A stretch of 64,000 bases of DNA from Escherichia coli (GTDB taxonomy: Bacteria > Pseudomonadota > Gammaproteobacteria > Enterobacterales > Enterobacteriaceae), in the NCBI RefSeq assembly GCF_045037415.1, contig NZ_CP173438.1. The stretch is one strand, 5' to 3'. The position numbers and the translations under genes are program-made. Below, in pieces: positions 908 to 1,789 of this stretch. The notes under the pieces are model-generated. The model saw nothing but the letters and a program-made list of their open reading frames with translations, was not told the origin of the DNA and made no database searches. How positions within the stretch are numbered: position 1 is the first letter of the stretch; each line of letters opens with the position of its first letter.

Positions 908-1789
908 ATGAGTCATAATAAAAAGGAATATGCTAAATTTTTCCGTCGCCCCATTTTTTCATCCTTAGCAAAAGGTAAGGATATTTCGGATTTATTTGGG
1001 AGTTTTGATTCTTACTGCTATGAAACACTGTTTTCAAACAATGATAATAATGAACATGAGATTTCACTAAGGGATTTATTTACATCATTATATGATTTTT
1101 TGCGTCTGAATTATAGAAATGAATATGTTTATAAGACAGCACTTGTCAATAAAATAATATTCGGTAAGCACAGCCCAAAAACAAGTTCGTCGTCCATAGA
1201 GTTACCAATTAAAAACTCTATAGTGGATGTTGCGGTGTTTAATGGTACGTCTACAGCTTACGAGATTAAGACAGAGTATGATTCACCAAAAAGGTTGATT
1301 ACTCAAGCCCCTGATTATTTGGATGTTTTTGATAAAGTGTATATAGTTACACATCCAGAGTATGCAAGTAAATATTGTGCTTTAAATCTCCCCAGAGTGG
1401 GAGTTATGGTTTTGAATAAAAAAGATCAATTGAGTGTCATTAAGGAGGCAGATTCAAATATTGATTATATTAAAAGTGACAGCTTGTTTTCAGTTCTTAG
1501 AAAGGAAGAGTTCTTAGCTATAATAGAAGATTACACTTCAACTAAAATAAATATGCCTAACGGATTGGTTTATGAATATTGTAAAGAGATATTCATGCAG
1601 ATGCCATTAAACATAGCAAATAAATACTTTATCTCTGCTATGAAAAAAAGATGTAACGATAAAGTTTTTTTGGATTATATTTATTCTCTTCCAGCATGTT
1701 TACGTGTTTTAGGTTATGCAACACCATTATCAAGAAAGCAAAAAGAATTCATCATGAATTTGATGGATGTAAAAATTAAAATTTGTTGA
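908..1789 (+). CDS. Hypothetical protein (293 aa) with PD-(D/E)xK nuclease-like motif; cassette gene A
   Basis: Long ORF in AT-rich DNA; motif E98-L-P ... V-D107-V-A-V ... Y-E119-I-K121 (IELPIKNSIVDVAVF...AYEIKTE); no family recognised. Confidence 0.6.
   Translation: MSHNKKEYAKFFRRPIFSSLAKGKDISDLFGSFDSYCYETLFSNNDNNEHEISLRDLFTSLYDFLRLNYRNEYVYKTALVNKIIFGKHSPKTSSSSIELPIKNSIVDVAVFNGTSTAYEIKTEYDSPKRLITQAPDYLDVFDKVYIVTHPEYASKYCALNLPRVGVMVLNKKDQLSVIKEADSNIDYIKSDSLFSVLRKEEFLAIIEDYTSTKINMPNGLVYEYCKEIFMQMPLNIANKYFISAMKKRCNDKVFLDYIYSLPACLRVLGYATPLSRKQKEFIMNLMDVKIKIC

Follow-up and report, generated by a model that had tools for sequence, protein, structure and literature searches.

A probable PD-(D/E)xK nuclease and its TIM-barrel partner in the variable hotspot of a P4-like satellite of Escherichia coli

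A 64,000-nucleotide stretch of an Escherichia coli chromosome (contig NZ_CP173438.1, assembly GCF_045037415.1; hereafter the window) carries near its start two adjacent plus-strand genes, which we call gene A (908-1789, an open reading frame (ORF) of 293 aa) and gene B (1811-2761, 316 aa). Our analysis suggests that gene A encodes a metal-dependent PD-(D/E)xK nuclease and that the pair forms an anti-phage module in which B would regulate and A would cleave, a reading to which, taken as a whole, we assign a probability of roughly 0.6. Gene A with gene B is probably a two-gene, gop-less relative of the gop-beta-cII system of P4. The parts of this reading differ in strength: a nuclease fold with an intact active site in gene A is very likely, an anti-phage role for the pair is favoured with more restraint, and we put the assignment of gene A as the terminal effector of the two-gene form slightly below even odds.

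By sequence, gene A is a member of a named and uncharacterised family, sce7726/Phage_P4_cII, a membership that went unrecognised in the initial annotation. RefSeq lists it as WP_000019149.1, "sce7726 family protein", the name also given to P4 cII. The NCBIfam model NF033832 (sce7726_fam), with a curated cutoff of 70 bits, matches gene A at 175.6 bits (E 9.6e-52, residues 70-249) and P4 cII at 151 bits, and phrog_984 is common to both proteins. The PADLOC hidden Markov model (HMM) 'cll', which belongs to the gop-beta-cII system, matches gene A at E 1e-18. PF26915 (Phage_P4_cII) has a precomputed match in all 120 listed homologues and in P0001, a cluster representative 100% identical to gene A over 90% of its length; the Pfam release used for our own scans is older than this entry. 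The family is large. A word-indexed search with gene A returned 417 homologues, and when 1.84 billion cluster representatives were searched exhaustively with HMMER, 1396 proteins were returned at E<=0.001.

The initial annotation had proposed a nuclease active site in gene A from four residues, E98, D107 and E119-I-K121, encoded at 1199-1270 on the plus strand. These coordinates and residue numbers are exact on the translation of ORF 908-1789: the segment reads ELPIKNSIVDVAVFNGTSTAYEIK, and the codons lie at 1199-1201 (E98), 1226-1228 (D107), 1262-1264 (E119) and 1268-1270 (K121). As a bare pattern, E-x(5-15)-D-x(8-20)-E-x-K says little: it turns up in 35% of shuffled versions of gene A and in 13 of the window's 68 long ORFs, and the case must therefore stand on conservation and structure.

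Conservation was assessed in an alignment of 149 sequences, comprising gene A and 148 representatives of 50%-identity clusters from the HMMER search, mostly 30-45% identical to gene A. D107 and E119 are kept in all 149 sequences, E98 and K121 in 148 each. Further positions are retained almost as strictly, both ahead of and among the strands (E72 and Y73 in 147, K76 in 145, N112 in 143, Y118 in 144) and around the second helix (D125, Q133 and Y137 in 149, R129 in 141). When the P4-type branch was added, consisting of P4 cII and homologues from Methylibium, Pseudomonas and Acinetobacter at 17-21% identity, E98, D107, E119, K121, D125, R129 and Q133 were still invariant, as was K76; position 137 is F in P4 cII. 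Loss of the motif residues among homologues, which had been named as grounds for giving up the proposal, is thus not what we find. The four-residue site stands, but it had left out the invariant E72, K76, D125, R129 and Q133-x-x-x-Y137. The first two lie in E72-Y-V-Y-K76 (1121-1135, plus strand), at the start of core helix alpha1, and probably belong to the active site. The others, D125, R129 and Q133-x-x-x-Y137 (1280-1318, plus strand), lie at or on helix alpha2; we take Q133-x-x-x-Y137, which follows the ExK strand, to be the Q..Y motif typical of RecB/NucS-type PD-(D/E)xK nucleases.

An AlphaFold2 model of gene A, built from a 36-sequence alignment (pLDDT 92.5, pTM 0.90), places these residues in a recognisable fold. 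The modelled core runs helix 72-87, strands 94-101, 104-111 and 115-121, helix 128-138 and strand 143-148. The order, alpha-beta-beta-beta-alpha-beta, is that of the restriction-endonuclease fold, which the initial annotation had put forward as a check on its proposal. D107, described there as lying in a strand-like stretch, does fall in strand beta2 (104-111), with E98 in beta1 (94-101) and E119 and K121 in beta3 (115-121). Going by the modelled strand boundaries alone, each of E98, D107 and E119 lies equally far from the two hairpin turns, so the three should be neighbours across the strands and share a face of the sheet; K121 follows two residues later. The motif exceeds chance because it is conserved family-wide and because its residues occupy fitting strand positions in the model. 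The core (aa 69-180) is flanked by a helical N-terminal extension (aa 1-68) and a helical C-terminal domain (aa 185-293).

Among solved structures, the closest relative is SPO1766 (3dnx), at 14% identity to gene A. Gene A is related to the MmcB-like family (DUF1052, PF06319), to which 3dnx belongs, though it lies outside that family at the sequence level, where neither gene A nor 35 relatives gave a Pfam match to it. MmcB-like proteins are single-domain proteins of ~150 aa that have been implicated in tolerance of mitomycin-C damage; gene A, unlike them, is paired with a TIM barrel. It also differs from proteins with RecB-type nuclease domains such as NucS/EndoMS (2vld) and the CRISPR/CBASS ancillary nucleases Can2, Card1 and Cap4, whose sensor domains are of the CARF/SAVED or PCNA-binding kind where gene A has helical domains at both ends. 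When the PDB was searched by sequence, with the family profile or P4 cII as the query, only chance matches appeared (TTHA1432 at E 0.13, a fragment of Lon, and HisF), and a Foldseek search of AFDB50 matched only unannotated 'Sce7726 family protein' models that carry no functional information. A supplementary HHpred table had linked P4 cII to MmcB-like PF06319 at 99.76%, and also to AHJR-like, NucS, DpnII-MboI and BpuSI_N entries (Rousset 2022, PMC9122126). A nuclease fold for the cII family is accordingly already implicit in that supplement, though the text of the paper does not take it up.

Gene B belongs to the sce7725 family (NCBIfam sce7725_fam, 242 bits) and has a TIM-barrel fold. Only 21 nt separate the stop of gene A from the start of gene B, which implies one operon, and an AGGAG ribosome-binding site can be read from the sequence at 1797-1801 (plus strand), 9 nt ahead of the gene B start. 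Against P4 Beta, gene B gave no significant BLASTP match, and Pfam and PADLOC models, including the PD-Lambda-2_C HMM, gave none for it either. When an alignment of 39 sce7725 sequences was compared with one of 33 Beta sequences in hhalign, the two matched over 250 columns with a probability of 87.7% (E 3.4e-6), and an N-terminal Y-x-P-x-L-x-x-R-x-x-E motif and a GD(Y/H) motif were aligned. Judged from these profiles, gene B and P4 Beta (PF14350) are probably remote homologues. Polar positions that are invariant in B itself are E12, E34, N59, D199, H220, H235, S238, K297 and H304.

The pairing of the two genes extends far beyond E. coli. A survey of one genome per species yielded 80 sce7726 loci spanning Proteobacteria, Actinobacteria, Bacteroidota, Acidobacteria, Spirochaetes and Nitrospirae, the namesake Sorangium So ce56 among them. 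In 74 of the 80, sce7725 adjoins sce7726, in almost every case as the downstream gene of the same strand, the two overlapping or lying <60 nt apart; of the six remaining loci, three lie at contig ends. In 29 of the 80 loci the pair is followed by a third gene, whose product (~345 aa) combines a RES domain (Pfam E 1e-14) with a weak HEPN/RES domain at its N terminus. Beta-type loci in Methylibium, P. aeruginosa and Acinetobacter have the arrangement seen in P4, in which a Phage_P4_cII gene runs convergently towards a small ORF and Beta. The family layout is therefore a constant core of cII-like nuclease and Beta-like barrel with a variable third gene, which is Gop, RES or none.

Several further features of these loci were recorded. 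The RES protein (29 loci among L025-L083, e.g., L025:7616-8722) has an N-terminal CxxC...CxxC segment, and this variant is absent from the E. coli window. In P. aeruginosa (L088/L089:6264-6859), a HigB-like toxin/HTH (helix-turn-helix) pair beside a gop-beta-cII-type locus recalls PD-lambda-2. Type I restriction-modification (R-M) genes neighbour sce7726 loci in several species. Two loci from metagenome-assembled genomes of Deltaproteobacteria (L031:1117-7658 and L033) have an sce7726-like gene and no sce7725, beside HsdR-like and HsdM-like type I R-M genes, and at locus L077 a Dam-like methylase gene stands directly upstream of sce7726.

Two described defence systems offer points of comparison. 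With P4 gop-beta-cII (gop_beta_cll in DefenseFinder and PADLOC), which protects against lambda and P1 (Rousset 2022, PMC9122126), the A-B locus shares a cII-family gene, represented by gene A with the same invariant E..D..ExK..D..Q residues; a paired TIM barrel, which in the A-B locus is probably Beta-like; and a hotspot beside a P4-type integrase. Unlike the P4 system, it lacks gop: a gop-like ORF was sought at 229-907 and downstream of gene B, with no gop HMM match and no ORF of comparable size. Genes A and B are also co-directional with A first, whereas in P4 gop-beta is convergent with cII. Gene A is 21-22% identical overall to P4 cII, and it differs from P4-type proteins in its 68-aa helical N-terminal extension and in a different, helical C-terminal domain of ~105 residues. 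Gop is the small toxin of the P4 system, with two transmembrane (TM) segments; its toxicity is reported to be counteracted by Beta (Ghisotti 1990, as cited in Rousset 2022, PMC9122126), and toxicity of gop-beta-cII is set off by the phage accessory gene orf184 (Silas 2023). PD-lambda-2 (Vassallo 2022, PMC9519451) likewise has a Beta-like component, and P4 Beta matches the PD-Lambda-2_C HMM at E 8e-14. Because PD-lambda-2C is needed for defence and dispensable for toxin neutralisation (Vassallo 2022, PMC9519451), it behaves as a sensor or activator, and it serves as a model for the possible role of gene B. The likeness has limits, since the toxin module of PD-lambda-2 consists of HigB with a HigA-peptidase and gene B itself misses the PD-Lambda-2_C HMM.

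The position of the pair is consistent with a defence role. Upstream of the window lie DUF927 primase-like, Icd-like and P2-family capsid-like genes, which identify the element as a P4-like satellite. The interval between delta and int in such satellites is a hotspot for anti-phage systems (Rousset 2022, PMC9122126), and A-B occupy this interval beside a P4-type integrase gene at a tRNA. The block ogr/delta - A - B - int - tRNA-Arg(CCU) - yfdC was found in 420 of 5426 complete E. coli genomes (at >=80% coverage), and G+C content is ~30% across A-B and 45-50% around them.

Putting these elements together, we propose that A and B are co-transcribed from the satellite hotspot and that B senses infection or regulates its partner, as Beta-like proteins do with other toxins. 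The active site of A would consist of E98, D107, E119 and K121, carried by three antiparallel strands that lie side by side, together with E72 and K76 from helix 1 and D125, Q133 and Y137 around helix 2. Nuclease activity is predicted from this site, with DNA, whether of phage or host, as the presumed substrate. The initial annotation's suggestion of a DNA/RNA-cleaving effector is thus partly supported, in its nuclease fold and site, while the effector role is a prediction. On detection of infection A would cleave it, and the cleavage would block phage replication or abort the infection. Where RES or Gop is present, A may instead, or also, act upstream of the toxin.

Several observations weigh against this proposal. 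Our literature search (covering sce7726/sce7725, protein accessions, PF numbers, MmcB/3dnx and orf184) located no functional study; it found no published nuclease assay for any sce7726/cII protein, and the only defence assay in the sce7726 family concerns P4 cII as part of a three-gene system. The function of the 3dnx protein is itself unassigned, and a Pfam-A scan of gene A and 35 family members matched no nuclease family, PF06319 included, at the sequence level. PADLOC returned the 'cll' match alone at the A-B locus and no system, so the pair is probably not called as gop-beta-cII. The link between gene B and Beta is one profile-profile match. The 29 RES loci of the survey and Gop in P4 imply that the nuclease need not be the effector in those forms, and some family members sit amid housekeeping genes, off mobile elements (L003, with smpB and pepA).

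Of the alternatives, the one that survives best, although we think it unlikely, is that gene A is a sensor or DNA-processing part and not the killer: A and B would together recognise phage DNA or a replication intermediate, and the outcome would be delivered by Gop or RES or, in the two-gene form, perhaps by B. This would fit the repeated appending of toxin-type third genes to the same core (RES in the survey, the 2-TM Gop in P4 and other Proteobacteria), the invariance of the nuclease residues in Gop- and RES-type forms too, and the invariant polar residues of gene B, which suggest an enzyme. The E. coli form, however, has no third gene, so either A or B must act in it, and the conserved catalytic set of A is the simplest candidate. 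The Beta-like PD-lambda-2C, moreover, acts as an accessory or sensing factor and not as a toxin.

A role outside immunity seems less probable still. Here A-B would serve DNA repair or recombination, or the life cycle of the satellite, for instance by processing damaged or replicating DNA as has been proposed for MmcB-like nucleases. SPO1766/3dnx is the best structural match and HHpred ties P4 cII to the MmcB-like DNA-repair family, the L003 locus shows no marks of a mobile element, and P4 cII originally received its name as a dispensable phage gene whose function was unknown (Rousset 2022, PMC9122126). Against such a role stand the patchy distribution within E. coli and the low G+C content, a position exactly in a satellite hotspot that otherwise holds defence systems, the presence of RES and Gop toxins and of R-M genes alongside the pair, and the protection that the three-gene P4 homologue confers against lambda and P1.

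It is very improbable that A and B form a classical type II toxin-antitoxin pair in which B, as the antitoxin, neutralises a nuclease toxin A, even though a two-gene operon on a mobile element and the reported neutralisation of Gop by P4 Beta would suit it. In strain THO-015 (L092), an IS1 insertion splits sce7725 while an identical sce7726 remains intact, and isolate FXCREC145 (L096) shows the converse, a truncated sce7726 with an intact sce7725. These natural knock-outs argue against a simple toxin-antitoxin pair, as weak evidence from single isolates in which, for THO-015, compensating changes are possible. In addition, B, a TIM barrel of 316 aa, does not resemble known antitoxins, and PD-lambda-2C is not needed for neutralisation. 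A restriction-modification system was also considered and rejected: the locus has no methyltransferase or other modification enzyme, and gene B is a TIM barrel without a specific family.

That the motif is a chance pattern, or part of a degenerate and inactive nuclease-like fold, is scarcely credible: the frequency of the bare pattern in shuffles and the missing Pfam nuclease match would allow it, but E98, D107, E119, K121, D125 and Q133 are invariant down to 17% identity, E72, K76 and Y137 are conserved, and all of them sit on canonical strands or helices.

A broader interpretation of the family is possible, though we consider it doubtful. The sce7726 nuclease and the sce7725 TIM barrel might be the core, both ancestral and widely distributed, of a modular immune family that spans Proteobacteria, Actinobacteria, Bacteroidota, Acidobacteria and Spirochaetes and of which P4 gop-beta-cII is only one offshoot. 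The barrel, as an enzyme or a sensor, would detect infection and license the RecB-like nuclease, and the add-on toxins Gop, RES and HigB (the last in PD-lambda-2) would be interchangeable on the same sensor.

The remaining features of the locus concern the borders of the hotspot and its rearrangements. On one side lies the 3' part of an ogr/Delta-like zinc-finger gene (1-228, with an ORF at 43-228, plus strand; RefSeq WP_000783295.1). On the other is the P4-type tyrosine integrase gene (2741-3916, minus strand; RefSeq WP_000926944.1), followed by a tRNA-Arg gene with anticodon CCT (4077-4151, minus strand; ARAGORN and RefSeq), which is the integration site of the element, beside yfdC. The 3' ends of the integrase gene and gene B are convergent and overlap by 21 nt (2741-2761); G+C content changes at this junction from ~30% in A-B to ~45% in int, which suggests that this cargo was exchanged right at the end of int. 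Between the ogr-like gene and gene A, positions 229-907 form a gap of ~680 nt without a credible ORF, with terminator-like hairpins at 554-581 on both strands; it could house the A-B promoter, a satellite cos-like site or both. In strain SK1144 (L001:7543-14228), the element is a non-canonical P4 that encodes an HTH regulator, a P2-family major-capsid-like protein, an Icd-like protein, a DUF927 primase-like protein and ogr/delta, with no annotated psu or sid. In other isolates, the spacer between ogr and gene A contains IS66-family and IS4321 elements. Insertion-sequence hits across isolates L092-L097 (including AVS0155, L097) include IS1 at the 3' end of sce7726 beside an intact sce7725, IS1 in the 3' end of the integrase gene and ISEcp1 in the integrase gene.

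The fold assignment is neither surprising nor wholly new, and the added interest lies in a conserved nuclease/TIM-barrel core with swappable toxins. If the result goes no further than a nuclease fold in a family that is already annotated, it amounts to routine structural annotation, implicit in an earlier supplement (Rousset 2022, PMC9122126). If, however, A-B are active in defence, ~8% of the complete genomes of E. coli, those of O25:H4 strains apparently among them, would bear an unrecognised anti-phage system on a P4-like satellite, and many other phyla would carry the same system. The proposal, if true, would supply P4 cII, which has been known since 1990 without a function, with a biochemical role, and would show what the enigmatic Beta-like barrels contribute to at least three systems (gop-beta-cII, PD-lambda-2 and A-B). 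Should the modular-core interpretation also be true, the family would represent a new class of sensor and a new regulatory logic for nuclease effectors.
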